From NCBI GenBank assembly GCA_031401035.1, contig JANNRA010000112.1:2628-66627 (forward strand): a stretch of 64,000 nt of DNA. The letters are read 5' to 3'. Below, piece after piece: positions 3,962 through 51,491 of the stretch. The notes under the pieces were generated by a model. That model had not been told where the DNA came from, made no database searches, and worked only from the letters and a program-made list of their open reading frames with translations. The position numbers and the translations under genes are program-made. The stretch's first letter is position 1; every line of letters starts with the position of its first letter. The stretch is from a bacterium. GTDB taxonomy: Bacteria > Desulfobacterota > Binatia > HRBIN30 > CADEER01.

Positions 3962-3989
3962 GACGGCAGCCGCCGCGGCTGCGCGTCCA

Positions 3990-5910: not shown

Positions 5911-5917
5911 GCGTGTC

Positions 5918-7004: not shown

Positions 7005-7006
7005 CG

Positions 7007-7624
7007 TCACTGCCTCCCTTTCAACGCCAGGCCGAGCTGCTGCAGGTAGGCGATCAACGCCTCCAGTTCGCTGCGTCCCTCGACCGCCGCCCTGGCGCCG
7101 TCGATCTGTTCGTCGCTGTAGGGCACGCCGACGATGCGCAGCACGCGCATCTTGTCTCCCGTGTCGGCACCGCTCAGGACGTTCTCGGCCAGCCACGGGA
7201 AGGCGGGCATGTTCGACTCGGGCACCAGATCGCGCGGGTTCATGAGGTGGATGCGGTGCCACTCGTCGGAGTAGCGGCCGCCGACACGCGCCAGGTCCGG
7301 TCCGGTGCGCTTCGAGCCGAACAGGAAGGGGTGGTCGTACACCGATTCGCCGGCCACGGAGTAGTGACCGTAGCGTTCGGTCTCGGCGCGCAGCGGCCGA
7401 ATCATCTGCGTGTGGCAGACGTGACAGCCGTCGCGGATGTAGAGGTCGCGCCCCTCGAGCGCCAGGGCGTCGAGCGGCTGCACGCCCTCGACCGGCTCGC
7501 TGACCTCCGTGCCGGCGATCAGCGGCAGGATCTGCGCCAGTCCGGCGAAGCTGACGACGATGAAGATCAGGATCCCCATGATGCCGATGTTGCGTTCGAC
7601 GAGTGGCTGCTGCGTAACCGCCAT
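7007..7624 (-). CDS. ccoO: cbb3 oxidase subunit II, monoheme cytochrome c (CcoO)
   Basis: Internal start at [21 protein letters not shown]. It carries a CHVCH heme motif and conserved ccoO blocks ([21 protein letters not shown]). A GGAGGAGG Shine-Dalgarno sits upstream. Confidence 0.9.
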
Positions 7625-7646
7625 GCCCGGTTCCTCCTCCCTCGCC

Positions 7647-9101: not shown

Positions 9102-9303
9102 AGCTGTCCTCCCGTTCCGAGCCCGCCGCGCTCGATCGGCGAGCGCATTCCCGCAAACCGTTTGCAGACGGCGTGCCGAGGGACGGGCGAACGGGATCAA
9201 CGCGCCCAGCCACCATCCCGTCGCGGCGCCGGGAAAATCGGGCGGGCGATTCCCGAAAGTTGGAGACGCGGCCGGGGGACGAGTCCTGGCGGTCTGCCGG
9301 GGC

Positions 9304-10644: not shown

Positions 10645-10664
10645 GGCTGGGGGGCGTGAACTTC

Positions 10665-13304
10665 TTACGGTTCCGTCACCCAGAAGTTGCCGAACAGGAT
10701 GAACATCTCATCCTCGGTGCGGAAGCCGCCGGTGACCGGGCAGGCGTCGCAATCACCGTCGCCGGCGCCGGGGCTCGATTCGCAGGCGGCGTCGTTACCG
10801 TTGCACAACTGGCCCTGCTTGGCGCCGCCGATGCACTGCGTCTTGTTCACCGCGCACGGCCCGCCGACGGCGAAGGCGTTGAAGATGACGCCGGCCGGCG
10901 GCGAGGTCGAGCGGCGCTTCACCGTCTGCGGCTCGGTGGAGCCGTTGTCGTAGTGGCCGCAGTAGGTGAAGGTGCGGTCGTAGTTCGCCGCGTCGCCGTC
11001 GAGCTCGATCGGCGGGTCGAAGCGCAGGACAACCGGGTCGTTGTACACGTAGTTGGCGTAGAGCAGGGCGTCCTGCGGGTCGCGTCCGCCGCCGTCGAGG
11101 CAGGCCGAGGCCGGGCAGGTCGCCGGCTCCTGCGGATTGCACGCCTTGCCGCCGTTGCTGCCGCCGGCGCAGGTGAAGCGACCGCGGTACACCTGGAAGC
11201 GCTTGCCGTGCCGATGCATATGGCCGCTGAGCTCGAAGACGTGCGCGGTCTGGCCCGGCAGAAGCAGGGAGTCGTCGCCGAACATCGTACTCGGCGGGCC
11301 GAACTCGTGCAGGTTGCAGGTCTCCATGTCCGTGAACGGGGCCAACTCGACCTGCGGGAAGGGCGGGAAGTTCTCGTTCCAGAAGATGCGGCTGGTGTCG
11401 AAGATCTGCTCCTGGACGAAGTCCTGCTCGTCGGGCTCGGGGAACAGGATGTTGACCCAGGCCTCCAGCGTGCCCGCCTGGCGGGTCAGGTTGAAGGCAT
11501 GCGAGTTCCACAGAATGACGCCCTTGACCGGCATCTCGTCGTAGACCGTCGAGGGGAAGCGGAAGTGCGCCGTCGTCTCCTGGGCGAAGGCGAAGCCACC
11601 GCTGCCGAGCGAGCCGAAGCCCTCGACCGGGCCGAAGCCGATGCAGGCGATGGTCGTCGAATCCGGATCGGTGGCGCACTGCCCGGCGCCGCAGAAGGGA
11701 ATGTCGAGCGGGTTGCACGCCTGACCAGCGCGGGCGCCGCCCTTGCAGCTGTATGGGCCCCAGCGCGGATCGTCGGCGGCGGCGGTGCCGCGGAAGATGT
11801 CGACGATCAGGTGGTGGCTGAGCGGGTCCTGGCGCACCTCGACGCTCTTGTAGCGGAATGTCTTGCCGTCCGGACTGAGCAGCGAGGCCGGAATCTGGCC
11901 GGTGAAATCGTAGTAGCTGGAGTAGCAGACCTCGGTCTCGCTCTTGCTGGCCAGGGTGTACGCCGGCATGTGCATCTGCACGCCCTTGCCGGCCGGCGGC
12001 GGTTCGAGCGGGTCGATCTTCACCGGCAGCGGTTCGGGCACGCAGGCGTCGAGGAGGGCCGCGGCCTGCGGCAGGTTGGCGTCGCGCGCCGCGCCGCCGG
12101 TTTCGATCCAGATGCCGAGGGCCTCGAGCTCGTCTTCGGTGAGCGTGTCGGCGCGGAGCGGCATCGGGCTGCCGACCGGCGCATCGTAGTCGTCGGGCCG
12201 CGTCTTGGCGGCCAGCTTGAGCCACAGCAGGCTGAAGTCCTTGCTGCCCGGTTCGACGCGGCGCAACGGCGAGTTGGCGCCGACGACGTCGTTGATGTTG
12301 GCGTAGGAGGCGCCGGCGCGCAGGTCGAGGTCGCCGAGCTTGGCGGCGCCGTGGCAGGCGTCGATGCTGCAGCCGCGGTTGTCGAAGATGGCCTTCTGGA
12401 TCAGATCGTAGGTGGTCGGGAAGACGTCGCACTCGGTCTTGACGCAATCGGCCCGGCAGCCGTCGCCGTCGTAGTCGTTGCCGTCGTCGCACTCCTCGAC
12501 CGGCAGCACCTGCATGCCGTCGCCGCACTCGGCGGGCGGGCAGACGACGGCGTTCTGTACGTAGGTCTCCTGCGCCAGGCAGTCGGCGCGGCCGGCGATG
12601 CGGCCGAGGACCTCGTCAAGGTCGCGTCCGTAGGTTTCCGCGAACAAGTCGCCCGGGCAGGCAGCGGCGATGCGTGCCTGTAACAGCTCCTCGGCGCGCG
12701 CGATGGCGCGGCCGCTGCGCTCGACGAGGCTGGTCTTCTGCGCCGGCGTCAGCACGGTCGAGGCAATGGCGTCGAGGGCGCGCTGGCGAGCGCGTACAGC
12801 GTAGCGCAGCAGCGAGCCGGCGGCGCGGCCGGTGACGTCGATGCAGGTCTGCGCGTCGCCGGTCATCGCGGCGATGGTGCCGCCGAGCATCGCCGGCCCG
12901 TAGGCGGCGGTGACCGCCGCGGTGTCGAGCTGGCGGCAGACGTCGATGACGTCGGTCTGCGCGTCGCCGAGGTCGACGTAGCGCAGGGTCTGCAACTGGC
13001 CGGCGGCGCAGTTGTCCGCGACCATGTCGCGGGCGCGCTCGCGCGCCGACTGAATCTTGGCGTCGCGCGTCGCCTCGTCGCACGGCGCGCCGCGCAGTTG
13101 CGCGGCGCTGCAGGTCGTCCGCGCCGCCAGGGCGCGGCTGGCGCACAGCGAGGCGGCGCGCGAGATCGCCCGCTGGCAGCGCGCCGTGTCGGGATTGAAC
13201 CCGCCCCACACCGCCAGGTCCGCCGGTGCCCCGTGCGCGTATGCGCTCGCGGCCGTCAACAGCACGGCGATGAGGATCCCCCAAGTCGTCTTCGTTCGAT
13301 GCAC
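10665..13304 (-). CDS. large secreted cysteine-rich protein with a Myxococcus cysteine-rich repeat and a C-terminal His-rich domain
   Basis: Probable GTG start at VHRTKTTWGILIAVLLTAASAYA (signal peptide). It contains a CGDG..EECDDGNDYDGDGCRADC repeat and many Cys residues. Its C-terminal half carries HH...HMHRHG...M motifs. Confidence 0.6.
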   Translation of the reverse strand: MHRTKTTWGILIAVLLTAASAYAHGAPADLAVWGGFNPDTARCQRAISRAASLCASRALAARTTCSAAQLRGAPCDEATRDAKIQSARERARDMVADNCAAGQLQTLRYVDLGDAQTDVIDVCRQLDTAAVTAAYGPAMLGGTIAAMTGDAQTCIDVTGRAAGSLLRYAVRARQRALDAIASTVLTPAQKTSLVERSGRAIARAEELLQARIAAACPGDLFAETYGRDLDEVLGRIAGRADCLAQETYVQNAVVCPPAECGDGMQVLPVEECDDGNDYDGDGCRADCVKTECDVFPTTYDLIQKAIFDNRGCSIDACHGAAKLGDLDLRAGASYANINDVVGANSPLRRVEPGSKDFSLLWLKLAAKTRPDDYDAPVGSPMPLRADTLTEDELEALGIWIETGGAARDANLPQAAALLDACVPEPLPVKIDPLEPPPAGKGVQMHMPAYTLASKSETEVCYSSYYDFTGQIPASLLSPDGKTFRYKSVEVRQDPLSHHLIVDIFRGTAAADDPRWGPYSCKGGARAGQACNPLDIPFCGAGQCATDPDSTTIACIGFGPVEGFGSLGSGGFAFAQETTAHFRFPSTVYDEMPVKGVILWNSHAFNLTRQAGTLEAWVNILFPEPDEQDFVQEQIFDTSRIFWNENFPPFPQVELAPFTDMETCNLHEFGPPSTMFGDDSLLLPGQTAHVFELSGHMHRHGKRFQVYRGRFTCAGGSNGGKACNPQEPATCPASACLDGGGRDPQDALLYANYVYNDPVVLRFDPPIELDGDAANYDRTFTYCGHYDNGSTEPQTVKRRSTSPPAGVIFNAFAVGGPCAVNKTQCIGGAKQGQLCNGNDAACESSPGAGDGDCDACPVTGGFRTEDEMFILFGNFWVTEP

Positions 13305-13453
13305 CACGCCTACCCCCGTGAAACGTTGTATCGGGGCGCAACCGCTAAGGAAAGGCGGCAGGCGCTCAGCGGCCGAAATCGCCGCCCTCCAGTCGCCGGC
13401 GGCTGCAAATCGGCGCTGGAGCAGGGCGTCATGCTGTGCCACCCTGGCGCGCC

Positions 13454-35825: not shown

Positions 35826-36566
35826 GTGGCTGCCACTGCACGGGAACGACTCGCCGCCCTGGACCTGCCGGGGACGGTGCGCTTCGGCGCGCCGACCGCC
35901 GACGCGGTGCGCCGCCTGCCGGTGGGCATCGCGGCGCTCGACGCGCTGCTCGGCGGCGGCCTGCCGCGCGGCTACCTGAGCGAGCTGGTCGGCGGCCGCG
36001 CCAGCGGCCGCACGGCGGTGCTGTACGCGCTGCTGGCGGCGACGACGCGCGCCGGCGAGGTGGCGGCGGTGGTCGACCTGCCCGACGCGCTCGATCCCGC
36101 CAGCCTGGCGCGCGCCGGGGTGCAGCTCGAGCGCGTGCTGTGGGTACGCCCGCCGGCGCCGCGCGCCGCCCTGCAATGCGCCGAGTTGATCCTCGCCGCC
36201 GGCGGCTTCGCGCTCGTCGCGCTCGACCTCGACGGGCCGCCGGCGCGCCTGTCGCGCGCCGCCTGGCCGCGCCTCGCCCAGGCGGCGCGGCGCGCCGGCG
36301 CGGTCTGTGTCGTCAGCGGCGCGCAGCGCCGCGCCGAGGGCGCCGCGGCGCTGGCGCTGCAGCTCGACGCGCGCCGCGTGCACTGGAGCGCGCACCTGCT
36401 CGACGGCCTCGCCGCCACCGCGACGCTGACGCGCAGCCGCTTCGGCGCGGCGGGGCAGGTGGCGACGATCGTCGTCGGCGAGGAACTATCGACGTTCAAC
36501 GCGCACCTCTCCGTCGCCCGCAAGCAGATGCAGCTCCCCTCTCCCGCCGGGAGAGGGTCAGGGTGA
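35826..36566 (+). CDS. imuA: SOS mutagenesis protein ImuA (inactive RecA-fold)
   Basis: GTG start. A RecA-like Walker-A region (LSELVGGRASGRTAV) is present. It is the first gene of the imuA-imuB-dnaE2 cassette. Its last codons and stop are encoded by a GGGAGAGGGTCAGGGTGAGGGG hairpin repeat. Confidence 0.75.
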   Translation: MAATARERLAALDLPGTVRFGAPTADAVRRLPVGIAALDALLGGGLPRGYLSELVGGRASGRTAVLYALLAATTRAGEVAAVVDLPDALDPASLARAGVQLERVLWVRPPAPRAALQCAELILAAGGFALVALDLDGPPARLSRAAWPRLAQAARRAGAVCVVSGAQRRAEGAAALALQLDARRVHWSAHLLDGLAATATLTRSRFGAAGQVATIVVGEELSTFNAHLSVARKQMQLPSPAGRGSG

Positions 36567-36635: not shown

Positions 36636-38111
36636 GTGCGCCTCGCCTGTCTGTACGTGCCGGTGTTCCCGCTCGCCGCCTGGCTGCGCGCCGAGCCGGA
36701 GTTGCGCGGTACGCCGCTGGCCGTCGCCGACGGCGCCTCGCCGCGGGCGCGGCTGGTCGCCTGCTCGCCGGAGGCGGGGCGGCGCGGCGTCGCGCCGGGG
36801 CTGACGGCGGCGCAGGCGGCGGCGATCGCCGGCGACCTGGTGTTGCGGCCGGCCTCGCCCGACGCCGAGCGCGCCGCGCACGCGGCGCTGGCCGACGTGG
36901 CGTACTCGTTCTCACCGCGCGTCGAGGACGGCGCTCCGGGCACGGTGTACTTCGACGCCGACGGCCTGCACGAGCTCTACCCGAGCGAGCCGGCGCTGGC
37001 GCAGGCGGCGCTGCGCCGCGCCGCCGCGCTCGGGCTCGATGCCGCGATCGGCATCGCCGGCAGCAAGATCGCCGCCGAGCTGGCGGCGCGCGATGGCGGC
37101 GGCTGCGCGGTGGTGCCGCCGCACGAGGAGTGGCGGCTGCTGGCACCGCTGTCGCTCGATCGGCTGCAGCCCGCTCCGGCGCTGCGCGAGACGCTGAGCC
37201 GCTGGGGTATCCGCACGCTCGGCGATCTCGCCGCGCTGCCGGCGAGCGGGTTGGCGGCGCGGCTCGGTCCGGAGGCGGCGGCGCTGGCGCGACGGGCGCG
37301 CGGCGAGGACGCGCACCCGTTGGCGCCGCGGCCGCTGCCGCTGCAGTTCGAGGAGGCGGCGGCGCTCGACTGGGGTGTCGACGCGCTGGAGCCGTTCCTG
37401 TTCGTTGTGCGCGGCCTGCTCGACCGCCTGACGGCGCGTCTCGAGGTGCGCGGCCTGGTGTGCGGCGACCTGCGCCTGTCGCTCGGCCTGGTCGACCGCG
37501 GCCGCGACGAGCGCACGGTGACGGTGGCGGCGCCGAGCACGGCGGTGAAGGCGCTGCTGACGCTGGTGCGCGTCCATCTCGAGACCCACCCGCCGCGCGC
37601 CGCCGTCGAGCACCTGCGCCTCGCCGCCGTACCCGAGCGTCTGCGCGCCGCGCAACTCGACCTTTTCCGCCCCGCCGGCCCGGCGCCGGCGCAGCTCGCC
37701 GCGACGCTGGCGCGCCTCGGCGCCCTGTGCGGCGCGGTGCCGGTCGGCATGCCGGTGGTGGCCGACTCGCACCGCCCCGACGCCTACGGCGTGGCACCGT
37801 TCGCGGCGCCGCCGGCGGCGGCGGCAGGAGCGGAGTCGCGGCCCGTGCCGCTCGCCATCCGCGCCGTGCGTCCGCCGCGTCGACTGGAGGTCTTCTGCCA
37901 GCGCGATCGTCCCGACTTCCTGCGCGCCGCCGGCTGCCAGGGCCGCGTCGTCTCTCTCGCCGGCCCCTGGCGCCTCGCCGGCGAGTGGTGGCGCCCCGAG
38001 GCGGTGCTGCAGCGCGACTACTACGACGCCCAGCTCAGCGACGGCGGCGTCTACCGGTTCTACTTCGACCGCGCCGCGCAGCAGTGGTTCCTCGATGGTG
38101 AGTACGACTGA
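36636..38111 (+). CDS. imuB: Y-family-polymerase-like ImuB
   Basis: GTG start with MRLACLYVPVFPLAAW (the typical ImuB N-terminus). The protein is 491 aa and the gene precedes dnaE2. Confidence 0.8.
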   Translation: MRLACLYVPVFPLAAWLRAEPELRGTPLAVADGASPRARLVACSPEAGRRGVAPGLTAAQAAAIAGDLVLRPASPDAERAAHAALADVAYSFSPRVEDGAPGTVYFDADGLHELYPSEPALAQAALRRAAALGLDAAIGIAGSKIAAELAARDGGGCAVVPPHEEWRLLAPLSLDRLQPAPALRETLSRWGIRTLGDLAALPASGLAARLGPEAAALARRARGEDAHPLAPRPLPLQFEEAAALDWGVDALEPFLFVVRGLLDRLTARLEVRGLVCGDLRLSLGLVDRGRDERTVTVAAPSTAVKALLTLVRVHLETHPPRAAVEHLRLAAVPERLRAAQLDLFRPAGPAPAQLAATLARLGALCGAVPVGMPVVADSHRPDAYGVAPFAAPPAAAAGAESRPVPLAIRAVRPPRRLEVFCQRDRPDFLRAAGCQGRVVSLAGPWRLAGEWWRPEAVLQRDYYDAQLSDGGVYRFYFDRAAQQWFLDGEYD

Positions 38112-38140
38112 CTTTCACACGGAGAAACGGAGGAACGGAG
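38112..38140. repeat. left inverted repeat flanking the GxxExxY gene
   Basis: CTTTCACACGGAGAAACGGAGGAACGGAG. Its reverse complement matches 38519-38548 with one mismatch and one indel. Confidence 0.75.
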
Positions 38141-38554
38141 ATGATGGACAGATTGGCGACGGAGGGAATCATTGCGGCGGCGATCGAGGTCCATCGGGCA
38201 CTGGGACCAGGATTGCTGGAGAGCATCTACGAAGAGTGTCTGGCGGAAGAGCTGTCGTTGCGAGGCATGGCGTACGAGCGACAGCGCGGGGTTCCCCTGG
38301 AGTACAAGGGGCGTCGCCTCGGAATCGATCTGCGTATCGATCTGCTCGTCGGTGACCGGGTGGTCGTCGAGTTGAAGGCGGTCGAGAAAATCCTGCCCAT
38401 CCACGCCGCCCAGGTCGTGACGTATCTCCGGCTGACCAACAAACCGTATGGATTGCTGATCAACTTCCACGTCCCGATGCTGAAAGAAGGCATTCGCCGC
38501 TATCTCAATCCCGTCCTTCTCCGTTCCTCCGTTGCTCCGTGTGAAAAGTCCTGA
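38141..38554 (+). CDS. GxxExxY family protein (PD-(D/E)XK_3), inserted between imuB and dnaE2
   Basis: MMDRLATEGI..GPGLLESIYEECL contains the GxxExxY motif. The 137-aa gene is lower in GC than its surroundings and is flanked by 30-bp inverted repeats. Confidence 0.8.
   Translation: MMDRLATEGIIAAAIEVHRALGPGLLESIYEECLAEELSLRGMAYERQRGVPLEYKGRRLGIDLRIDLLVGDRVVVELKAVEKILPIHAAQVVTYLRLTNKPYGLLINFHVPMLKEGIRRYLNPVLLRSSVAPCEKS
38519..38548. repeat. right inverted repeat flanking the GxxExxY gene; overlaps the dnaE2 start
   Basis: CTCCGTTCCTCCGTTGCTCCGTGTGAAAAG. A related motif also occurs at 36593-36627 immediately upstream of imuB. Confidence 0.75.
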
Positions 38555-41500
38555 CGACTACGTCGAGCTGCGCACGCGCAGTGCCTTCTCCTTCCTCGCC
38601 GGGGCGTCGTTGCCGGAGGATCTGGTGGCGCGGGCGGCGGCGCTCGATCACGGCGTCCTCGCCATGGGCGATCGCGACGGGGTGTACGGCGCGCCGCGCT
38701 TTCATCAGGCGGCGGTGAAGGCCGGCGTGCGCGGCATCGTCGGTTGCGAGCTGACGACGGTGGACGGGGCGCTGTACGTGCTGGTCGCCGAGCGGGTGGG
38801 ATATCGCAACCTCTGCCGGCTGCTCAGCGACGCCAAGCTGCGCGCGGCGAAGGGCGCGGCGGTGGTCGAGTGGAGCGATCTCGACGGGCGCAGCGACGGA
38901 CTGATCTGCCTGGCGCGGCAGCCGGCGGGGCTGGCGCGCCTGCAGCGCCTGTTCCCGGGGCGGCTCTACCTCGAGCTGCAGCGCCACCTCGACGCGGACG
39001 AGGAGCGGCACAATCGCGTCCTCGCCGCCGCCGCCGAACACCACCGCCTGCCGCTGGTGGCCACCAACGACGTGCGCCACGCGGCGCCGGACGGGCGGCC
39101 GCTGCTCGACGTGCTGACCTGCCTGCGCGAACACACGACGCTCGACGCCGCCGGCCGCCGCCTGCTCGCCAACGCCGAGCGCCATCTCAAGCCGGCGCGC
39201 GAGATGGCGGCGCTGTTCCGCGACCAGCCGGCGGCGCTGGCCAACACGCGCCGCATCGCCGAGCAGTGCGCCTTCGGGCTCGCCGACCTCGGCTACCGCT
39301 TCCCCGACTATCCGCTGTCGCCCGGCGAGACGGCCGACGGCCACCTGCGGGCGCTCACCGAGGCCGGCGCGCGCGGGCGCTACGGTGCGCTGACGCTGCG
39401 CGTGCGGCGCCAGCTCGAGCACGAGCTGGCGGTGATCGCGCAGCTCGGGCTGGCCGGCTACTTCCTCATCGTCTGGGACATCGTGCGCTACTGCCGCGAG
39501 GCCGGGATCCTGGCGCAGGGGCGCGGCTCGGCGGCCAACTCGGCGGTCTGCTACGCGCTCGGCATCACCGCCGTCGACCCGATCGGCATGGAACTGCTCT
39601 TCGAGCGCTTCCTGTCGCCGGAGCGCGGCGAGTGGCCGGACATCGACATCGACCTGCCGAGCGGCGAGCGGCGCGAGCGGGTCATCCAGTACGTCTACCA
39701 GCGCTACGGCCCGCGCGGCGCGGCGATGACCGCCAACGTCATCACCTACCGCACGCGCAGCGCCGTGCGCGAGGTCGGCAAGGCGCTGGGGTTCGCCGAG
39801 GCGCAGGTGGCGCGGTTGTCGAAGCTGCTGCACCGCTTCGAGTTCCGCGACGACCTCGACCAGCTGGCGGAGCAGTTGCGGGCCGGCGGCGTCGACCCCG
39901 CCGCGCCGCGCGTGCGCCTGTTGGTCGATCTCGTCGCGCGCATCCAGAACCTGCCGCGCCATCTCGGCCAGCACTCCGGCGGCATGGTCATCGCGGCCGG
40001 GCGGCTCGACGAGGTGGTGCCGCTCGAGCCGGCGGCGATGCCGGGGCGGGTGGTGGTGCAGTGGGACAAGGACGACTGCGCCGATCTCGGCATCATCAAG
40101 GTCGACCTGCTCGGCCTCGGCATGATGGCGGTGCTGGAGGACACCCTACCGCTGATCCGCGTGCACGAGGGGGTCGAGGTGGACCTCGCCCGCCTGCCGG
40201 CCGACGACCCGGCGACCTACGCCATGCTGCGGCGCGCCGATACGATCGGCGTCTTCCAGGTCGAGAGCCGGGCGCAGATGGCGACGCTGCCGCGCCTGCG
40301 GCCGGAGCGCTTCTACGACCTGGTCGTCGAGGTGGCGCTGATCCGCCCCGGCCCGATCGTCGGGCAGATGGTGCACCCGTACCTGAACCGCCGCCGCGGC
40401 CGCGAGGCGGTGACGTACGCGCATCCCGACCTCGAGCCGATCCTGGCGCGCACGCTGGGCGTGCCGCTCTTCCAGGAGCAGCTGCTGCGCATGGCGATGG
40501 CGGTCGCCGACTTCAGCGGCGGCGAGGCCGAAGAGCTGCGCCGCGCCATGGGCTTCAAGCGCTCCACCGAGCGCATGCGCGAGATCGAGGCGCGCCTGGT
40601 CCGCGGCATGGCGGCACGCGGCATCGCCGCGGCGGCGCAGGACGGCATCATCACCAGCATCACCTCGTTCGCCCTCTACGGCTTCCCCGAGTCGCACGCC
40701 GCCAGCTTCGCGCTGCTCGCCTACGCCTCGGCGTACCTGCGCCGCCACCACCTCGCCGCCTTCACCTGCGCCATGCTCAACAACTGGCCGCTCGGCTTCT
40801 ACCACCCCGCCACCCTGGTGAAGGACGCCCAACGCCACGGCCTGCACATCCTGCCCGTCGACGTGACGATCTCACCCTGGAACTGCACCCTCGAACCGGC
40901 AGCCATGCAGGCGGCCGCCCAGAGTCCCCCAGCCGAAGGAAGGTGTGCAGATGCCCAGAGTCCCCCAGCCGGGACCGCGGGCGTCTCGCCCGCAGCCGAC
41001 GCCGGTTGGAGCAACCACCTCTCCCTCCGCCTCGGCCTGCGCTACGTCTCCGCCCTGCGCGCCGACACCGCCGCGCGCATCGAGTCCGCCCGCGCCGCCG
41101 CCCCCTTCGCCGACCTCACCGATCTCACCCACCGTGCCGCGCTGCGCGACGACGAACTACAGACCCTCGCCCACGCCGGCGCCTTCGCCCCCTTCGGCCT
41201 CACCCGCCGCGACGCCATGTGGCAGGCCGCCGCCGTCAGCCGCGATCCGCTCTTCGCCGGCGCCCGCGTCCGCGCGACCGCCGCGCCGCTCCCCGCCGCG
41301 CCGTTGCCCGAGATGACCACCGTCGACCGCACCCTCGCCGACTACACAACCCTCGGCCTCACCGCCGGCCCGCATCTGATGAAGTACCTGCGCCCGAGTC
41401 TCGACGCCCAGGGCGTGCTGCGCAGCCGCGATCTGGTGCGGGAGAAAAACGGCGCCTGGGTGAAGCTCGCCGGGCTGGTCATCGTCCGCCAGCGCCCCGG

Positions 41501-41807
41501 CACCGCCAAGGGCTTCTGCTTCCTCACCCTCGAGGACGAGACCGGCATCGGCAACGCCGTCGTCACGCCAGATCTGTTCCAGCGCCACCGCGCCGTCATC
41601 CACACCGCCGCGCTGCTGCTCGTCGAGGGCCCGCTGCAGGTCGTCGAGGGCGTCATCCATCTGCGCGCCCGCCGCTTCACGCCGCTGGCGCTGCCCGAAC
41701 AGGTCGTCACCCAGGCCGGACACGGCTACCGCATGCGCGTCACGCCGCAGGAGGAACCGCCGCCGGGGCTGCCGCCGAGGCTGCCGAAGTCGCACGATTT
41801 CCGCTGA
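38532..41807 (+). CDS. dnaE2: error-prone DNA polymerase DnaE2 (ImuC)
   Basis: The 1091-aa protein has an N-terminal PHP domain ([10 protein letters not shown]), the Pol III alpha core and an OB fold. The start is TTG at 38532 or GTG at 38541, with no obvious Shine-Dalgarno. Confidence 0.9.
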
Positions 41808-41824
41808 CCACACACGGAGGGTTC

Positions 41825-42992
<1,168 letters not shown>

Positions 42993-42997
<5 letters not shown>

Positions 42998-43018
42998 TCC
43001 GGATAAATGTAGTTAGCC
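42993..43018 (+). other. attI core with direct repeats GTTAGTCCGGATA and GTTAGCCGGATA; the recombination point is G(43012)|TT
   Basis: The first cassette begins TTAGCC at 43013. The attC1 inverse core GGCTAAC is the reverse complement of GTTAGCC. Confidence 0.7.
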
Positions 43019-43022
43019 GGAT

Positions 43023-43415
43023 ATGAAACGAGACGAGAAGACCTTGGCAGGATCCGATCTGTCTCCCATCGCAAAGGTCGTGCTTGGGCTGGCGCTCGGC
43101 GTGCCACTAACCTTCTCGTACGCAGCCCTATCGCTGGGCGGCGACACGGCCACGTGGTTGTCCAAGCTCCAGCGTCTGGTCCCCATTGCAGGCGTCGTCG
43201 CGTCGGCGGCCGTCGCTGCACTCTTCTGGAAGCGCGTTCCTGCGCTGCGGTTCGCGCCCGTCGCGTACGCTGTCCCTTTGGCCCTTTCCGTCACCGTCGA
43301 CACTGTGCAAGTAGACCTGCGAACGGTTGTGGAGGGTATTGCTGCCGGGTTGATCATCGGGTTCGGGATCATGTTCGCCATCTGGATCGAGACCAAGGAT
43401 GCGGCGACCGGCTAA
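43023..43415 (+). CDS. cassette 1: hypothetical membrane protein (130 aa, about 4 transmembrane helices)
   Basis: MKRDEKTLAGSDLSPIAKVVLGLALGVPL... Its stop TAA lies inside the attC1 inverse core. Confidence 0.7.
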   Translation: MKRDEKTLAGSDLSPIAKVVLGLALGVPLTFSYAALSLGGDTATWLSKLQRLVPIAGVVASAAVAALFWKRVPALRFAPVAYAVPLALSVTVDTVQVDLRTVVEGIAAGLIIGFGIMFAIWIETKDAATG

Positions 43416-43508
43416 CATGGCGCTGCAGCCGACGCGGGCCACGAGGCCGAACGAGCAACGGGAGCCCGCGCGTGTCGGCCCGCGCGGCTGAGCGCCAAGC
43501 CGTTATCC
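43410..43508 (+). other. attC1 (99 bp): R'' GGCTAAC, R' GTTATCC
   Basis: Inner repeats GCAGCCGACGCGGGCC and GGCCCGCGCGGCTG. R'' is complementary to the cassette 1 opening TTAGCC. Confidence 0.8.
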
Positions 43509-43514
43509 AGACAG

Positions 43515-43856
43515 ATGAAGCTACCCGGGGCAGGTGCGGCGACGATCGATCCAGCGAAGGTCCGGGACTATCTGCTCTCCGAGACACATCCAGTGGGGCG
43601 TTTCAAAGCCTCGTTCTTCGCCAGCCTTGGCTATACGCCGGCCCGGTGGGACCTTCTCCGAAGCGATCTTCACGCGCTGGCCCTGCAGGAAGAGGCCGCG
43701 ACGGGCCTACGAAGTCCGTATGGCCAGAAATTCGAGGTCCGTGGTACCCTCTCCGGGCCGAATGGGCGAAGCGCATCGGTGGCGACGGTCTGGATCATTT
43801 TACAGGGCGAGAGTTCGCCACGTTTTGTAACGGCATTTCCGGGAGTAAAGACATGA
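43515..43856 (+). CDS. cassette 2, gene A: uncharacterized 113-aa protein, putative partner of the DUF4926 gene
   Basis: MKLPGAGAATIDPAKVRDYLLSETHPVGRFKASFF... Its stop overlaps the next ATG (ATGA). Confidence 0.6.
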   Translation: MKLPGAGAATIDPAKVRDYLLSETHPVGRFKASFFASLGYTPARWDLLRSDLHALALQEEAATGLRSPYGQKFEVRGTLSGPNGRSASVATVWIILQGESSPRFVTAFPGVKT

Positions 43857-44077
43857 CCTTCAAGATGCTCGACACCGTCGTGCTGGCAAGGGACCTTGCC
43901 GACAATGGTCTTCGTGCGGGTGACCTTGGCGCGGTGGTTGAAATCTACGAACCGGACGGCTTGGAGGTTGAATTCGTCACTGCATCTGGCAAGACCCAAG
44001 CACTGGTCACGTTGAGCGTCTCAGATGTTCGCCAAGTGCAGGACAGCGATCTCGTTTCAGTTCGTTCCGTCGCTTAG
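43853..44077 (+). CDS. cassette 2, gene B: DUF4926-like small protein (74 aa)
   Basis: MTFKMLDTVVLARDLADNGLRAGDLGAVVEIYEPDGLEVEFVTASGKTQALVTLSVSDVRQV matches the DUF4926 pattern. Confidence 0.65.
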   Translation: MTFKMLDTVVLARDLADNGLRAGDLGAVVEIYEPDGLEVEFVTASGKTQALVTLSVSDVRQVQDSDLVSVRSVA

Positions 44078-44097
44078 GTCGTGTTCGCCAGACCACT

Positions 44098-44154
44098 GGA
44101 TAACAAGCGCGTGCAGCCGACGGCCTCCGGCCGCGGCTGACGCGCACGTTCGGC
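44098..44154 (+). other. attC2 (57 bp): R'' GGATAAC, R' GTTCGGC
   Basis: R'' is the reverse complement of GTTATCC; the cassette opens TTATCC at 43503. Inner repeats GCAGCCGACGGCC and GGCCGCGGCTG. Confidence 0.8.
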
Positions 44155-44169
44155 TGCGTCGAGCGATCG

Positions 44170-44472
44170 TTGATTCCGATCCCAATGCGAGATTCAACAC
44201 GCGCCCAATGGCGTCAGATCGGACGGTTCTACTTCTGGGCGGCACTGGCGACGGGAGTTCTGTCGGTCGCGCTGTCGCTGGGACTGTGGAGATCCTGGAT
44301 CGCGGCCGCGTGGCTCGAGGCAGTTATCGCGCTGCCGCTGATCACTGCCGGTGTTATTCTCATCTGGAGCGTGACGGCCTATCCACTCATGCTTCTTCTC
44401 GCGCTGCTTTTCGGCCGCCCGGGCAAGCCCACGGGACCCGGTGATCCGGATGGGCCGGGTGTGGTCGTGTGA
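44170..44472 (+). CDS. cassette 3: small hypothetical membrane protein (about 100 aa)
   Basis: ..FYFWAALATGVLSVALSLGLW..IALPLITAGVILIWSV.. The ORF is bounded by attC2 and attC3. Confidence 0.6.
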   Translation: MIPIPMRDSTRAQWRQIGRFYFWAALATGVLSVALSLGLWRSWIAAAWLEAVIALPLITAGVILIWSVTAYPLMLLLALLFGRPGKPTGPGDPDGPGVVV

Positions 44473-44505
44473 CGAAGTTTCCGTCGGAAATTCGCTCGCA
44501 ATCCA

Positions 44506-44569
44506 GCCGAACAAAGCGGTGCAGCCGACGCGGGCCTGCGGCCCGCGCGGCTGACCGCTGGCGTTCGGC
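44506..44569 (+). other. attC3 (64 bp): R'' GCCGAAC, R' GTTCGGC, a perfect inverse pair
   Basis: GCCGAACaaagcggtGCAGCCGACGCGGGCCtgcGGCCCGCGCGGCTGaccgctggcGTTCGGC. Confidence 0.85.
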
Positions 44570-44593
44570 TTTCCGCAGGTCTTCGGGTAGACG

Positions 44594-44863
44594 TTGACCG
44601 TGGCCAAGCGCGACACTCTTCTCGTCCAAGTCCTGAGCGGCACGGCGGATGCGAACGTCCCCTTCGACGGGCTGCGCCGACTGCTCGGCCGCCTCGGATT
44701 CGACGAGCGGATCCGCGGCAGTCATCACATTTTCACCAAGACCGGAATCGTGGAAATCCTGAATCTGCAGCCCAAGGGCCGTGACGCGAAGGCATATCAA
44801 GTCAAGCAGGTGCGGGTTGTGATCGTGAAGTATCGGTTGGCGGGAGGAGCCAATGGCCAGTAA
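44594..44863 (+). CDS. hicA: cassette 4: HicA-family mRNA interferase toxin
   Basis: ..RGSHHIFTKTGIVEILNLQPKGRDAKAYQVKQVR.. is the HicA signature. The start is TTG at 44594 or GTG at 44600. Confidence 0.75.
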   Translation: MTVAKRDTLLVQVLSGTADANVPFDGLRRLLGRLGFDERIRGSHHIFTKTGIVEILNLQPKGRDAKAYQVKQVRVVIVKYRLAGGANGQ

Positions 44864-45071
44864 GTGGAAGTACGAGATCATCATCTATTGGAGCGACGAG
44901 GATGAGGCCTACGTCGCCGAGGTGCCTGAGTTGCCGGGCTGCGCCGCCGACGGCACGACCTACAAGCAGGCCCTCGCCAACGCGGAGATCGTGATTCGCG
45001 AGTGGATCGAGACCGCGCGTGAACTAGGCCGACCGATCCCCGAGCCCAAAGGGCGCCTCCTGTATGCGTAA
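44853..45071 (+). CDS. hicB: cassette 4: HicB-family antitoxin
   Basis: MASKWKYEIIIYWSDEDEAYVAEVPELPGCAADGTTYKQALANAEIVIREWIE has the UPF0150/HicB fold pattern. It overlaps the hicA 3' end. Confidence 0.75.
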   Translation: MASKWKYEIIIYWSDEDEAYVAEVPELPGCAADGTTYKQALANAEIVIREWIETARELGRPIPEPKGRLLYA

Positions 45072-45074
45072 GGG

Positions 45075-45164
45075 GCCGAACAAGGCGATCGACCCGCCCG
45101 GCCTGAGCGGCATCGCTCGCCGCGCAGCAGCCTGCGCCGGCGGGTCATCGCCAGCGCGTTAGGC
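45075..45164 (+). other. attC4 (90 bp): R'' GCCGAAC, R' GTTAGGC (canonical)
   Basis: R'' is complementary to the cassette 4 opening TTCGGC at 44564. R' is GTTAGGC at 45158-45164. Confidence 0.8.
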
Positions 45165-45200
45165 CGCTATCCCGCACCATCACCTCGCGGTGACCAGACG

Positions 45201-46949
45201 ATGAAGATGACAATGAGAGCACTGGCTTGCGCGCTGCTGACCGGAGCTATGGCGACCGCCGTCACGGCGCAGGAGGAGCGCGGTGCGATCACCGTCTTCA
45301 TTGCGAAGAAGATCGTCACCATGGATCCGACTCGGCCCACAGCCACAGCGGTCGCCGTCCGCAATGGCACCATTCTTGGCGTAGGTTCGCTCAAGGACCT
45401 TGCGCCCTGGCTCACGACGGCCAAGTACACCGTCAACGAAGAATTCAAGGAGCGGGTGCTGATGCCGGGCTTCATCGACCCGCATATGCACCCGATGCTC
45501 GCAGCCATCCAGTTCGGCACGACATGGATCACGCCCGAGCCGTGGGATGTGATGGGTGCAAAGATCCCCGCCACCATTGGACACGAAGCGTACCTGAGCG
45601 CCTTGAAGGCAGCGTTTGCCGCTGCCCCAAAGGCCGAGCCGATGTTCATCACATGGGGCTACAACCAGATGTTCCACGGTGACATGTCGCGTGCGCAACT
45701 GGATACCATCTCCAGCACCTATCCCATTTTCGTCTGGCACCGCTCGGCGCATGAGGCGTACTTCAATACGCCGATGCTCAAGTACCTGGAAGGTAAGGGA
45801 GTCACCGAAGCAGTGGTCAAAGGCAATCCTCAGATCAACTGGCAGAAGGGATACTTCTTCGAAGACGGCTTGTTCAAGGTTGCCGTACCTGCATTAGCCA
45901 ACTACCTGCTGGCACCCGCGCGCGTGGACATCGGCTATGCCAAAGCGCGCGATTACCTGAACTTCAACGGCATCACCACCGTAGCCGACATGAATACCGG
46001 CGGCGTCAGTTGGGACTTGGAGGTTGGAGCCCTGAAGCGCACATTTGATCGCAAGGACTCGCCGGTGCGCGTACGCCTGACCCCAGACGCCGTGGCGCTG
46101 GCCGCCGCCATGAAGAGCGCGGATGCGGCGTTTGCCTTCATTGGTAGAGCCGGTGAGAAGAACACTCGACACATCTTCACAAACGGGGCGATGAAGCTGT
46201 TTGCTGACGGGGCGATGTTCTCTCAACTGATGCAGCTATCGCCCCCTGGCTACATCGATGGGCATCAGGGTGCCTGGATCACGCAGCCCGCGCCGTTCGA
46301 GGAAGCCGCGCGCCGCTATTGGAATGCGGGCTATCAGATACATGTTCACACGAACGGTGACCACGGCGCGACGATGGTGCTCGACGTTCTCGAGAAACTC
46401 AAGGACGAAAAACCCCGAGCTGATCACCGCTTCACGATCGAACACTATGGCTATGCCACCGATGGCGTCAGTCGCAGGGTTGCGTTGCTCGGGGCGCTGG
46501 TCTCGGCTAATCCCTTCTACTTGTACGACCTCGGCGACAAATACGCCGAAGTGGGTTTGGGCGATGATCGAGCTGCGCGGATCACGCCGCTCGGCGGGCT
46601 CGCCCGTCGTGGAGTTCCTGTCGCGCTGCATTCGGACTTTGCGATGGCGCCTGCCGCGCCGCTCTTGCTTGCGTGGACGGCAATCACCCGCGAGACCCAG
46701 TCCGGCAAGGTGTTCGGACCCGAAGAGCGTTTGACGATGGATCAGGCCATGAAGGCGATCACCATCGACGCGGCCTACATCCTCCACCTGGAGGATCGCC
46801 TCGGCAGCATCGAGGCCGGAAAGCTGGCGGATTTCACCGTCCTCGATCAGGACCCCTACGCGGTCGGCGCGGCTGGGCTGCGCAACATCAAGGTCTGGGG
46901 CACGGTGTTTGAGGCCGCATCGCATCCCGCCAAAGCAAGCGCACCCTAA
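45201..46949 (+). CDS. cassette 5: secreted amidohydrolase-family (Amidohydro_3-like) metal-dependent hydrolase, 582 aa
   Basis: Signal peptide MKMTMRALACALLTGAMATAVTAQE. Motifs include PGFIDPHMHP, an HxH metal site, and later H..D motifs (HVHTNGDHG, HSDF). Confidence 0.75.
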   Translation: MKMTMRALACALLTGAMATAVTAQEERGAITVFIAKKIVTMDPTRPTATAVAVRNGTILGVGSLKDLAPWLTTAKYTVNEEFKERVLMPGFIDPHMHPMLAAIQFGTTWITPEPWDVMGAKIPATIGHEAYLSALKAAFAAAPKAEPMFITWGYNQMFHGDMSRAQLDTISSTYPIFVWHRSAHEAYFNTPMLKYLEGKGVTEAVVKGNPQINWQKGYFFEDGLFKVAVPALANYLLAPARVDIGYAKARDYLNFNGITTVADMNTGGVSWDLEVGALKRTFDRKDSPVRVRLTPDAVALAAAMKSADAAFAFIGRAGEKNTRHIFTNGAMKLFADGAMFSQLMQLSPPGYIDGHQGAWITQPAPFEEAARRYWNAGYQIHVHTNGDHGATMVLDVLEKLKDEKPRADHRFTIEHYGYATDGVSRRVALLGALVSANPFYLYDLGDKYAEVGLGDDRAARITPLGGLARRGVPVALHSDFAMAPAAPLLLAWTAITRETQSGKVFGPEERLTMDQAMKAITIDAAYILHLEDRLGSIEAGKLADFTVLDQDPYAVGAAGLRNIKVWGTVFEAASHPAKASAP

Positions 46950-46976
46950 ACAGATGCTGTTCGATCCCTTGAAGCG

Positions 46977-47036
46977 GCCTAACAACGGCATGCAGCGGAC
47001 GACGCTTCGCGTCGCCGCTGATGCCGGGCGTTGGCC
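46977..47036 (+). other. attC5 (60 bp): R'' GCCTAAC, R' GTTGGCC; last recognisable attC
   Basis: R'' is complementary to the cassette 5 opening TTAGGC at 45159. Inner repeats GCAGCGGACGACG and CGTCGCCGCTG. Confidence 0.75.
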
Positions 47037-47050
47037 GAAGGAGCGTTGCG

Positions 47051-47346
47051 ATGATCAGGGACCGTGCCCCAGTGCCGATGCACGGAGTGCGGCGCCAGCT
47101 CGCAGCACAGGGCATCGGGTGGCACTGGCGGGAGGCGATCCATGCCATCGGCCAGAAGGACATCGGCGCGATCGCCGATGTCCTGGGACACAACCCGTTC
47201 CTGATGGGCGAGACGGCAACCGGGATCGACGCGGTTACGTGCGGCGTCCTGGCGAACATCGTGAACGTGCCCGTCGCGCGCCCCGTCAAGGATGCGGCGG
47301 TGCAGCGCAGGAATCTCGTCGATTTCATCGAGGGGGTGCGCGGTCG

Positions 47347-47359
<13 letters not shown>
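47051..47359 (+). CDS. hypothetical protein after the last attC (orphan or degenerate cassette)
   Basis: AAGGAG Shine-Dalgarno. MIRDRAPVPMHGVRRQLAAQGIGWH... (102 aa). No attC follows, and it overlaps the convergent BVMO gene by about 13 bp. Confidence 0.45.
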
Positions 47360-49221
<1,862 letters not shown>

Positions 49222-50088: not shown

Positions 50089-50276
50089 CCGCCCGGCGCC
50101 GCGGCCGCTCCGCCTAGTGTCGTGAATCCGCAATCCCCGCTACAGCTCGGGGAGCCCTCGGCGCCCCTGGCTAGGCGCGCCGCCGCAGGAATATCGGGCC
50201 ATATTCCAAGGCGGCGCAACGCCGCCAGGGGTGTCGAGAGCCAGCGAGATGTGGCGGGGATCTCGGATTCACGACA

Positions 50277-51491
50277 CTAGCGCGGGTAGTGATACCCCCG
50301 GTCGAGGGGCGCGCGGTCGCGGCTGCCGTCGGGATTGGTCGAGCGCGCCAGGAGTTCCTCCTCCAGCGCCGTGTCGATGCGGCCGCTGCCGCTGTCGACC
50401 GCCGGACTGTCGGGCTCGAGGTGCAGATCGCCGGCAGCGATGTTGACAATCAACGGATCGACGTTGAGGTCGTTGGCACCGCGCACCTCGGCCGGGTTGT
50501 ACACCGCGGTCGGGTCTTCTGCCTCGGGCTGGAACACCACGTTGTAGTCGCCGAGGTAGCCCTCGGTGCCGCCGCTGGCGTCGATGCCGACGTTGGGTCC
50601 GGCCTCCTGCAGGATGTTGTTGATCACCTGCGTGTCGCTCGGTTCGGCGCCGCCATTGGCGCGCAACGAGATGCCGGCACGGTCGGTGAGGGCGACGCTG
50701 TTGTTGATGATCTGCGTGCGGGTGGCGCTGCCGGTGACGACGATGCCGCGGTCGGCGGCGAAGACGAGGTTGTTGAACAGCAGCACGTCGCGCGAGCTGT
50801 CGACGCGGATGCCGTCCGCCGTCGCGGCGTTGGCGATGACGCAGTGGCGGACGACGGCACCATCGGAGCCGCCGCGCACACGCACGGCGACGGCGGCGGC
50901 GGGCGGGTCCAGCGCCGGTGCGGCGCCGCGCAAGATGAAGCCGTCGACCGTGACGAATGGCGAATTGGTGATGATCAGTCCGAACGGCGCGCCGTCGGCG
51001 TCGAGGATGACGTCGCCGTCGGGATCGCCGGTGAACTCGCCGCTGCGGTCCGCGATGATGCGAATCGGTAGCGTCTCGGTGGCCGCGACGTTGGTCACCG
51101 CGACGCGGCCGCGGTAGACGCCGCGGCCGACGTACATGGTGCTCCCGGGTGTCAGCAGTTTGGCCGCGAACTCGACGGTCCGCAGGGGCTGCTCGGCGGT
51201 GAAGCCGGGGTTGGAGTCGTTGCCGTTCTGGCTCACAAAGAGGGTTACTGGCGGTCCCGGCGTGCGCGTCGGGCGCGGGGTGTTGGTCGGTCCGCCGGTG
51301 CGCGTCGCGGTGTAGGTCGGGCCGCCGGTGCGCGTCGGCGTGCGGCTCGGGCCACGTGTCCGGGTTGCCGTGCGCGTCGAGTTCGGATCCGGCGTCAGGG
51401 TTGGCACCGGGCTGGAGCCGCTGGAGCTGCCGCAGCCCGGCAGCACCAGGCACGCCGTCAGGAACAGAGTCGGCAATCGTCGCATGCGCAC
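50277..51491 (-). CDS. lipoprotein with a right-handed parallel beta-helix domain and a (T/P)RT low-complexity linker
   Basis: Lipobox LVLPGC. Linker TRTATRTRGPSRTPTRTGGPTYTATRTGGPTNTPRPTRTPG. Repeated ..NN(S/L)V.. beta-helix rungs. Confidence 0.7.
   Translation of the reverse strand: MRMRRLPTLFLTACLVLPGCGSSSGSSPVPTLTPDPNSTRTATRTRGPSRTPTRTGGPTYTATRTGGPTNTPRPTRTPGPPVTLFVSQNGNDSNPGFTAEQPLRTVEFAAKLLTPGSTMYVGRGVYRGRVAVTNVAATETLPIRIIADRSGEFTGDPDGDVILDADGAPFGLIITNSPFVTVDGFILRGAAPALDPPAAAVAVRVRGGSDGAVVRHCVIANAATADGIRVDSSRDVLLFNNLVFAADRGIVVTGSATRTQIINNSVALTDRAGISLRANGGAEPSDTQVINNILQEAGPNVGIDASGGTEGYLGDYNVVFQPEAEDPTAVYNPAEVRGANDLNVDPLIVNIAAGDLHLEPDSPAVDSGSGRIDTALEEELLARSTNPDGSRDRAPLDRGYHYPR

Follow-up and report, generated by a model that had tools for sequence, protein, structure and literature searches.

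A 64,000-nucleotide stretch of bacterial contig JANNRA010000112.1 (the window, to which positions refer unless another contig is named) holds an integron integrase gene, intI, followed on the same strand by seven open reading frames (ORFs). The question raised by this locus was whether these ORFs are the cargo of an integron and, if so, what kind of cargo they represent. Positions 43013-47030 most probably form the complete five-cassette variable part of a chromosomal integron, and we put the probability of this reading at about 80%. The cargo would then comprise two toxin-antitoxin (TA) modules, an exported amidohydrolase, and two small membrane proteins.

Cassette Boundaries and attC Sites

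The crossover points of the array were read from the sequence as G43012|T43013, G43502|T, G44148|T, G44563|T, G45158|T, and G47030|T, where the bar marks the point of exchange. They delimit cassettes of 490, 646, 415, 595, and 1872 bp, in this order along the + strand. An initial annotation of the window had placed five cassettes at 43013-47030, and these coordinates agreed with the crossover reading to the base. All seven ORFs that it described were present in the ORF list and in the raw sequence, all of them on the + strand. The attI-side core GTTAGCC (43012..43018, + strand) lies just past the intI stop codon, where the crossover is presumed to be G43012|T43013. Another candidate for the core, GTTAGTC (42993-42999, + strand), overlaps the intI stop codon and is located 19 nucleotides (nt) before GTTAGCC; of the two, we infer GTTAGCC to be the core in use.

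Five attC sites were found on the + strand: attC1 (43410..43508, 99 nt, R'' GGCTAAC, R' GTTATCC), attC2 (44098..44154, 57 nt, R'' GGATAAC, R' GTTCGGC), attC3 (44506..44569, 64 nt, R'' GCCGAAC, R' GTTCGGC), attC4 (45075..45164, 90 nt, R'' GCCGAAC, R' GTTAGGC), and attC5 (46977..47036, 60 nt, R'' GCCTAAC, R' GTTGGCC), which forms the end of the array. Each site starts with a ..AAC box and ends with a GTT.... box. All five, attC2 included, fold as imperfect single-stranded hairpins, with z scores of -2.7 to -7 compared with dinucleotide shuffles (attC1, -4.2; attC3, -7; attC5, -6.8). Two single-base bulges are present in the R''/L'' arm only in four of the five sites, although for attC4 they appear only in the centroid and top-strand folds; in attC1 they are on the 5' arm of the top strand. 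Because the bulges are confined to the R''/L'' arm, the + strand is the top strand. A 28-nt L-box stretch with 75% identity is common to attC1, attC2, and attC3 (repeat family D6). The guanine-plus-cytosine (G+C) content is 0.70-0.74 in the flanks and falls to 0.61-0.63 in the stretch 43000-47000, which was counted as support for a foreign origin of the array.

Two attC finders were applied. The first was unspecific in GC-rich DNA, and its hits were scattered over the window on both strands. The refined version was strand-specific and insensitive; it missed attC4 as well as the site in contig L089, so that its counts are minimum values. The attC pattern was restricted to the array region of the window, with the exception of a few weak hits. 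No Rfam match was obtained in 41500-47600. Reverse-strand ORFs that span attC sites (for example, 44194-44643) were not accepted as genes, because they extend from one cassette into the next and match no family.

The integrase gene intI (41826..42997, + strand) encodes 390 amino acids (aa) with matches to TIGR02249, Phage_integrase, and Phage_int_SAM_4. The score against NCBIfam TIGR02249 was 439.7 bits (cut-off 265), and the whole 315-position model was covered. A Pro-rich extension continues for ~55 residues past the end of the integron-integrase model (window 42831-42997). The nearest relative of the protein is 82% identical and is encoded in the metagenome-assembled genome (MAG) of an uncultured bacterium.

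Recurrence of Cassettes 2 and 5 in Other Contigs

The cassette boundaries were compared with other contigs for cassettes 2 and 5. DNA homology to the amidohydrolase cassette, cassette 5, begins exactly at G|TTAGGCCGCTATC in contigs L088 and L089/L090. In L089/L090 it runs through a conserved attC site (GGCCTAACAA.GGCAT.CAGC...GCGTT) and ends at GTT; in L088 the attC site is conserved up to the last bases, where there is no GTT core. The flanks of these copies differ each time, and amidohydrolase homologues in unrelated contigs are 85-92% identical. The two-gene unit of cassette 2, which encodes a DUF6883 and a DUF4926 protein, begins at G|TTATCCAGA(C/T)(A/T)GATGAAG in L096 and L097. Both copies end in an attC site that opens with GGATAAC or GGATAGC and closes with GTT, and in L096 the unit is the first cassette behind a same-strand integrase. 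Since the same boundaries recur in different flanks, cassettes 2 and 5 are mobile cassettes. Window 42755-44560 is matched at 100% identity by a metagenome contig, L007 (SRR20217205).

Further relatives of the amidohydrolase gene were observed in other surroundings. Contig L005 (5780-7960) contains an 86% identical copy with eroded ends (GCTAGGCC and a degenerate attC site), which adjoins a Y1 transposase in AT-rich DNA. In L099 and L100 (about 600-13400), a 66% identical amidohydrolase is part of a long, mostly co-oriented string of small genes, including ABM, transpeptidase-like, glyoxalase, acetyltransferase, MAPEG, and YCII genes. With its attC-like spacers, this string has the look of a large cassette array.

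The Two-gene Module of Cassette 2

Cassette 2 (43503..44148, + strand, 646 bp) contains a TA-like module of two genes. The first (43515..43856, + strand) encodes a protein of 113 aa with an isoelectric point (pI) of 9.8, which matches the DUF6883 family (PF21814, E 9e-31) over 108 of the 110 model positions. A family search yielded 914 hits at E ≤ 0.001 from many phyla, nearly all of them 110-113 aa in length and with ~65% identity. An AlphaFold2 model based on 36 sequences reached a predicted local distance difference test (pLDDT) score of 94.3 and consists of three helices followed by a four-strand antiparallel sheet. In a Foldseek search against the PDB, the top match of the model was 6CP9 (CdiA-CT/CdiI of Kp342) with an E value of 8e-5 and a template modeling (TM) score of 0.69 over ~110 columns, and toxins of the RelE, HigB2, and RelBE2 types followed in the ranking. 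From the modeled structure, DUF6883 is predicted to have a BECR alpha/beta fold and to be a toxin domain of the ribonuclease (RNase) type.

The tRNase CdiA-CT Kp342 has a BECR fold made up of several helices and then four strands; it cleaves tRNA-Ile(GAU) and requires EF-Tu, EF-Ts, and GTP (PMC9086364). Its active site consists of K157, Y160, H170, R252, and T255 (PMC9086364). In the DUF6883 family, K15, Y19, H25, and K31 are invariant and position 106 is T or S, also in plasmid and prophage homologues with 27-39% identity. By the order and spacing of these residues, the putative active site resembles that of Kp342, with K, Y, and H early and T late in the sequence.

DUF6883 also occurs as part of larger proteins. 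Among viral models (BFVD), a Foldseek search matched DUF6883 to the C termini of phage "minor capsid" MuF proteins of 473-497 aa (TM 0.85-0.92, E 3e-10), and the same search matched a metallopeptidase fusion. In a plasmid prophage region of Anoxybacillus, the DUF6883 domain forms the C terminus of a MuF gene located between the portal and scaffold genes. The position at the C terminus of MuF is the architecture of polymorphic phage toxins. A tBLASTn search with DUF6883 and DUF4926 against 50,697 phage records gave no match; the connection to phages emerged from the fold search and from the plasmid-borne prophage region only.

The second gene (43853..44077, + strand) encodes a 74-aa protein with a pI of 4.2 that matches DUF4926 (PF16277, E 7e-19), and it overlaps the first by ATGA at 43853-43856. 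Both the overlap and the DUF4926 assignment were thus found as proposed in the initial annotation. It had regarded the cassette as a TA-like or defence pair of unknown mechanism; the TA-like character was borne out, whereas the mechanism is no longer fully unknown, because the first gene encodes DUF6883, an RNase-type domain with a predicted BECR fold. The model of the DUF4926 protein (pLDDT 84) shows an SH3/KOW-like barrel of five strands and a short helix at the C terminus, and the PDB fold matches were generic KOW, SH3, and NdhS barrels at E ~0.01.

The pairing of the two families is conserved. In eight of eight independent free-standing loci, DUF4926 is located directly downstream of DUF6883 with overlaps or gaps of ≤10 nt. 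These loci are L001, L002, L003, L096, L097, the Nitrosococcus halophilus plasmid pNHAL01, a Rubrobacter radiotolerans plasmid, and the window itself; the pair is therefore present on plasmids from two phyla. DUF4926 is likely to be an antitoxin or immunity protein. Across clusters, identity is ~80% for DUF4926 and ~65% for DUF6883.

A Minimal hicA-hicB Pair in Cassette 4

Cassette 4 (44564..45158, + strand, 595 bp) contains hicA and hicB with an 11-nt overlap. The hicA gene (44600-44863, + strand) encodes 87 aa from the GTG start given in the source annotation (pI 10.7), with a match to HicA_toxin (PF07927) that falls just short of the cut-off, a GSHH motif, and a PHROG "toxin" match at E 0.003. 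A phmmer search of the PDB with this protein found no PDB HicA. HicA family toxins cut mRNA or other RNA. The hicB gene (44853-45071, + strand) encodes 72 aa (pI 4.6) with matches to HicB_lk_antitox (PF15919, E 1e-10), UPF0150 (PF21748), and PHROG "HicB-like" (E 3e-13). Its PDB relatives are TTHA0281, TTHA1013, and the N-terminal domains of the HicB structures 6G1C and 4P78. The match ends at residue 66 of 72, and there is no C-terminal DNA-binding domain, which makes the pair a minimal variant and not a canonical hicAB. The initial annotation was therefore correct in naming a hicA-hicB pair; the term "canonical" had to be dropped for a HicA under the family cut-off and a single-domain HicB of 72 aa. 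A homologous hicAB pair (59 and 71% identical, respectively) was found downstream of intI in a Terriglobia MAG (L039).

In both two-gene cassettes, a basic first protein is followed by a small acidic second protein in an overlapping frame. The best-supported reading of both is that they are type II-like TA modules.

The Amidohydrolase of Cassette 5

Cassette 5 (45159..47030, + strand) is large, as had been noted, with 1872 bp, and its ORF (45201-46949) encodes a YtcJ/COG1574-type amidohydrolase of 582 aa. The expected relationship to Amidohydro_3 (PF07969) was evident at E 7e-58. The N terminus, MKMTMRALACALLTGAMATAVTA|QEE, looks like a Sec-type signal peptide, and the homologues have similar N termini. 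H95, H97, K332, H381, H383, H415, H477, and D479 are invariant in 20 homologues. As the ligand residues are invariant, the binuclear-metal site is intact. The subfamily is tight, with 65-92% identity among members from Chlorobiaceae, Dechloromonas, Roseateles, Thiodictyon, Hyphomicrobium, and Citrobacter.

Among solved structures, those nearest to the enzyme belong to uncharacterised Pyrococcus hydrolases (E 1.5e-10). All NCBIfam equivalogs scored far below their cut-offs; the best reached 46.9 bits compared with a required 391. The neighbours of the amidohydrolase gene differ in every locus examined, so that the context gives no clue to the substrate.

The Membrane Proteins of Cassettes 1 and 3

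Cassette 1 (43013..43502, + strand, 490 bp) contains an ORF at 43023-43415 for a basic protein of 130 aa (pI 9.2) with three to four hydrophobic segments by hydropathy. The G+C content at third codon positions is 0.76 in this ORF compared with an overall G+C of 0.63. Its stop codon (43413-43415) lies inside the R'' box GGCTAAC of attC1, and the ORF thus runs into the recombination site. A phmmer search of 1.84 billion cluster representatives gave nine hits. The top match, a 4261-aa protein aligned in 48 stretches, was read as a low-complexity artefact. The real relatives are proteins of 125 aa (76% identity) and 129 aa (31% identity) and a few of ~80 aa that match the C-terminal half. The ORF is a real gene and a near-orphan.

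Cassette 3 (44149..44563, + strand, 415 bp) contains an ORF at 44185-44472 for a basic protein of 95 aa from ATG (pI 10.2), with two to three hydrophobic segments by hydropathy. An alternative TTG start at 44170 would extend the protein to 100 aa; on the identical contig L007 it is called as 95 aa. Its cluster at 90% identity has one member. No relatives were found on plasmids (tBLASTn) or in the metagenome scan, searches that reach only fairly close relatives, and the orphan status of cassette 3 holds within that reach. No credible Pfam, NCBIfam, PHROG, or PADLOC family was obtained for cassette 1 or 3. With two to four predicted spans, the two products match their earlier description as small membrane proteins without recognisable domains.

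Expression of the Array and Linkage to imuA-imuB-dnaE2

The 5' leaders of cassettes 1-5 are 10, 12, 36, 36, and 42 nt long. A sigma-70 promoter scan detected no sites in 41700-47400, and terminator-like sites occurred at chance level. With such short leaders and no sigma-70-like site, expression must come from upstream of the array.

Upstream of the array, the start of intI follows the stop codon of dnaE2 (38532-41807) by 18 nt on the same strand. This gene is preceded by imuB (36636-38111) and by the RecA-like imuA (35826-36566), both also on the + strand. The imuA-imuB-dnaE2-intI string is of the SOS-mutagenesis type, with intI at the tail of an imuA-imuB-dnaE2 operon. LexA sites were scanned for with the CTGT-N8-ACAG motif only, and no such box was found anywhere in the window. 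The linkage was also encountered in relatives. In L009 and L008, where intI is 71-82% identical, imuA-imuB(-dnaE2) is located directly upstream of a same-strand intI. The same imu-intI linkage is present in the distant L023 and L029, where imuB is only 30-31% identical, and probably also in L013. A literature search on integron integrase and imuB returned no paper on the imu-intI linkage. We regard the position of intI at the tail of imuA-imuB-dnaE2, recurring in distant relatives, as the most interesting side observation of this analysis.

Because intI and the cassettes are on the same strand, the integron is of the "inverted integrase" kind. Integrons with a same-strand "inverted integrase" are recognised as a group (PMC3575428). 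In the surroundings of 80 intI relatives from GTDB genomes (L008-L087), attC-like sites were counted at least 21 times in the divergent-upstream and at least 20 times in the same-strand-downstream position, compared with a background of four sites in each of the two "wrong" classes. The near-equal counts indicate that both layouts are common among the intI relatives.

The imuB-dnaE2 intergenic gap is exactly filled by a 29-nt inverted repeat (38113-38141 / 38518-38546) with 97% complementary arms and 376 nt between them. The G+C content dips to 0.66 there, and the repeat may be a small inserted element.

The Downstream Flank

On the other side of the array, an ORF at 47021..47359 (+ strand) overlaps the last attC site. 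It encodes the C-terminal domain of a glutathione S-transferase (GST_C_6 only), and its NCBIfam IsoI match covers model positions 149-236 of 238. The G+C content is back to 0.69 in this flank, and the ORF is apparently a host glutathione S-transferase gene truncated at the array end. Further downstream, a 36-nt inverted repeat (50114-50149 / 50245-50280; 89% complementary, 95 nt between arms) was observed just downstream of a carbonic anhydrase gene.

Discussion

Taken together, the data suggest the following picture of the array. Five promoterless + strand cassettes would have entered by capture at an attI site that closely follows the stop codon of intI, which is on the same strand. By analogy with Kp342, the DUF6883 protein of cassette 2 might cleave tRNA or some other RNA and thereby halt growth, and DUF4926 might neutralise it by direct binding. 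HicA of cassette 4 would act as an RNase toxin, and the one-domain HicB could bind the toxin and probably not DNA. Both modules would most likely serve as addiction modules that penalise loss of the array, and they may also act in abortive infection. TA modules are known to stabilise chromosomal integron arrays, and some may act against phage (10.1101/2024.07.02.601686). Cassette 5 would supply an exported binuclear-metal amidohydrolase on a cassette that circulates among integrons. An assignment of all cassette ORFs to housekeeping families would have spoken against the initial annotation, and the domain searches gave no such outcome. The facts stated in that annotation were borne out, and its interpretation was correct in kind, with the refinements given for cassettes 2 and 4.

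Several points weigh against this reading of the cargo. Neither antitoxin has a recognisable DNA-binding domain: DUF4926 gave no match to helix-turn-helix (HTH), ribbon-helix-helix (RHH), or AbrB families and in this respect differs from a DNA-binding, autoregulating antitoxin. It is also more conserved than its partner, with a mean column identity of 83% compared with 74% for DUF6883, and a stronger conservation of the antitoxin than of the toxin is unusual, being the reverse of the common TA pattern. The 5' leaders of the TA cassettes (12 and 36 nt) leave no room for a promoter of their own, unlike in the self-expressed TA cassettes of Vibrio arrays. The residues of DUF6883 were related to those of Kp342 by order and spacing and not by superposition, and at position 103, where this protein has R, many homologues carry Q, H, or K. 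When the PDB was searched with the sequences and profiles of DUF6883 and DUF4926, no meaningful match to a solved toxin was obtained, and no experimental work on either family was found in the literature searched. HicA scored 26.4 bits against HicA_toxin, just under the Pfam cut-off of 27. PADLOC returned no significant hit for any of the seven proteins.

Other explanations of the locus were weighed against the five-cassette integron. Strong folding is common in a genome of 72% G+C, and the first, crude attC finder scattered its hits on both strands, as would be expected if the repeats were chance GC-rich hairpins or elements like repetitive extragenic palindromes (REP) in an ordinary genomic island. 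This explanation is effectively refuted: a genuine IntI abuts the array, the five sites have AAC...GTT boxes and L-box sequence in common, four of them carry one-sided bulges in the minimum-energy fold, and the homology of the cassettes in other contigs breaks exactly at G|TT points. For cassette 5, the initial annotation had suggested an adaptive function such as the degradation of a xenobiotic or an antibiotic-like amide. The predicted export, the intact ligand set, and the horizontal mobility as a cassette are in line with this suggestion, as is a weak resemblance of the C-terminal part to phenylurea hydrolase B (E 1.4e-5). We nevertheless consider it quite improbable, as conservation of 65-92% across the six named taxa points to a common natural substrate and not to a recent xenobiotic, the closest solved relatives are the uncharacterised Pyrococcus hydrolases, no equivalog model matches, and the gene neighbours vary from locus to locus.

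The function of the two-gene cassettes can be read in two other ways. The DUF6883/DUF4926 module could be a stranded polymorphic toxin/immunity pair that derives from phage MuF or other delivered toxins and not an addiction module; its retention would then be due mainly to the protection that the immunity gene gives when toxins of this family arrive from outside, or to export or packaging of the toxin. In favour of this view, MuF proteins carry DUF6883 as a C-terminal toxin, the solved structure closest in fold is that of a toxin of contact-dependent inhibition, and strong conservation, as seen for DUF4926, would be fitting for an immunity protein that has to match a conserved toxin. We judge this origin unlikely, given that delivery, PT-VENN, and secretion domains are all absent from the free-standing DUF6883 of 113 aa, which is much the most frequent architecture, that the pair is found on plasmids and integron cassettes as a tight overlapping two-gene unit in the classic TA layout, and that the MuF fusion is followed by a different small ORF and not by DUF4926. 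A chiefly anti-phage cargo, in which the RNase pairs act in abortive infection and cassettes 1 and 3 encode membrane-disrupting effectors or superinfection exclusion proteins, appears doubtful. Chromosomal integron cassettes are enriched in defence systems, with TA as the commonest class (10.1101/2024.07.02.601686), both toxins are of the RNase type, and small single-gene membrane cassettes are compatible with exclusion functions. On the other hand, no PADLOC model matches any of the seven proteins, PHROGs gave nothing for cassettes 1-3, and the near-orphan proteins of cassettes 1 and 3 offer no comparative support. The anti-phage function also does not exclude a role in addiction.

With the addiction modules retained as the most likely function of the two pairs, it is possible, if tentative, to join the observations into one scheme. 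DUF6883/DUF4926 would be a real and very widespread TA family, composed of a tRNase-like BECR toxin and an unusually conserved SH3-like antitoxin without a DNA-binding domain, which spreads as an integron cassette. In the window, imuA, imuB, dnaE2, and intI would form one operon, whose transcript would continue at its 3' end into the promoterless cargo with the two toxin-first modules. DNA damage would then induce mutagenesis, cassette shuffling, and expression of the cargo together. The position of intI and the cassettes on the same strand behind an SOS-type mutagenesis operon suggests that cassette recombination or expression is coupled in this direct way, at the level of transcription, to damage-induced mutagenesis. 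The array is of wider use as a compact, fully delimited environmental chromosomal integron whose cargo can be read almost completely. The cassette-borne DUF6883/DUF4926 pair would give a first experimental handle on a TA family with thousands of members, and the predicted exported amidohydrolase moves between integrons of several phyla.

Comparison with Known Systems

The closest structural counterpart of the cassette 2 toxin is CdiA-CT Kp342. Both have N-terminal helices followed by a four-strand sheet, with K, Y, and H near the N terminus and T near the C terminus, and in both cases the toxin gene is followed by the gene of the neutraliser. The two proteins are only 16% identical and do not find each other at the sequence level. 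Unlike CdiA-CT Kp342, the DUF6883 protein is free-standing and has no CdiA delivery region. Its partner is a 74-aa SH3-like barrel, whereas CdiI of Kp342 is listed with one helix and nine strands (PMC9086364).

A preprint of August 2026 independently places DUF6883, by computation, in a class named "BECR-Tox3", regards DUF4926 as a putative immunity gene conserved downstream of it, and also describes MuF fusions (10.64898/2026.08.28.747851). BECR-Tox3 and the phage MuF-associated PBECR domains correspond to cassette 2 in the Pfam family and in the downstream DUF4926, and the C-terminal MuF fusions were found independently in the present analysis. The preprint does not report DUF6883/DUF4926 as an integron cassette. 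Of all the cargo, this pair is the part about which least is known. Its toxin-immunity nature had already been predicted computationally, and the contribution of the window is to show it travelling as a cassette bounded by attC.

Like HicAB of Burkholderia pseudomallei and HicA3B3 of Yersinia pestis, cassette 4 has hicA upstream of an overlapping hicB and a basic toxin with a GSHH motif. Its HicB keeps the N-terminal partial RNase-H-like domain of known HicAB systems. It differs from characterised HicB proteins in having no RHH or HTH domain and in this respect resembles TTHA0281 and TTHA1013. The enzyme of cassette 5 has the HxH, carboxylated-Lys-type KLFxDG, H, H, and D ligands in common with the YtcJ/COG1574 Amidohydro_3 proteins of PDB entries 3ICJ and 3IGH, both uncharacterised. 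It is ~100 residues longer than these and has a predicted signal peptide. Its subfamily, which has no characterised member, is set apart among YtcJ/COG1574 hydrolases by being borne on integron cassettes.

As a whole, the array resembles sedentary chromosomal integron arrays with TA cassettes, such as the Vibrio cholerae superintegron. Common to them are the IntI platform, attC-bounded and mostly promoterless cassettes with a G+C content below that of the host, a large share of cassettes with no known function, and TA modules dispersed among the others. It is unlike these arrays in having only five cassettes, a same-strand intI at the end of imuA-imuB-dnaE2, and two antitoxins without a DNA-binding domain. 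The array is a typical small chromosomal integron array, in which TA, orphan, and hydrolase cassettes are the expected cargo.

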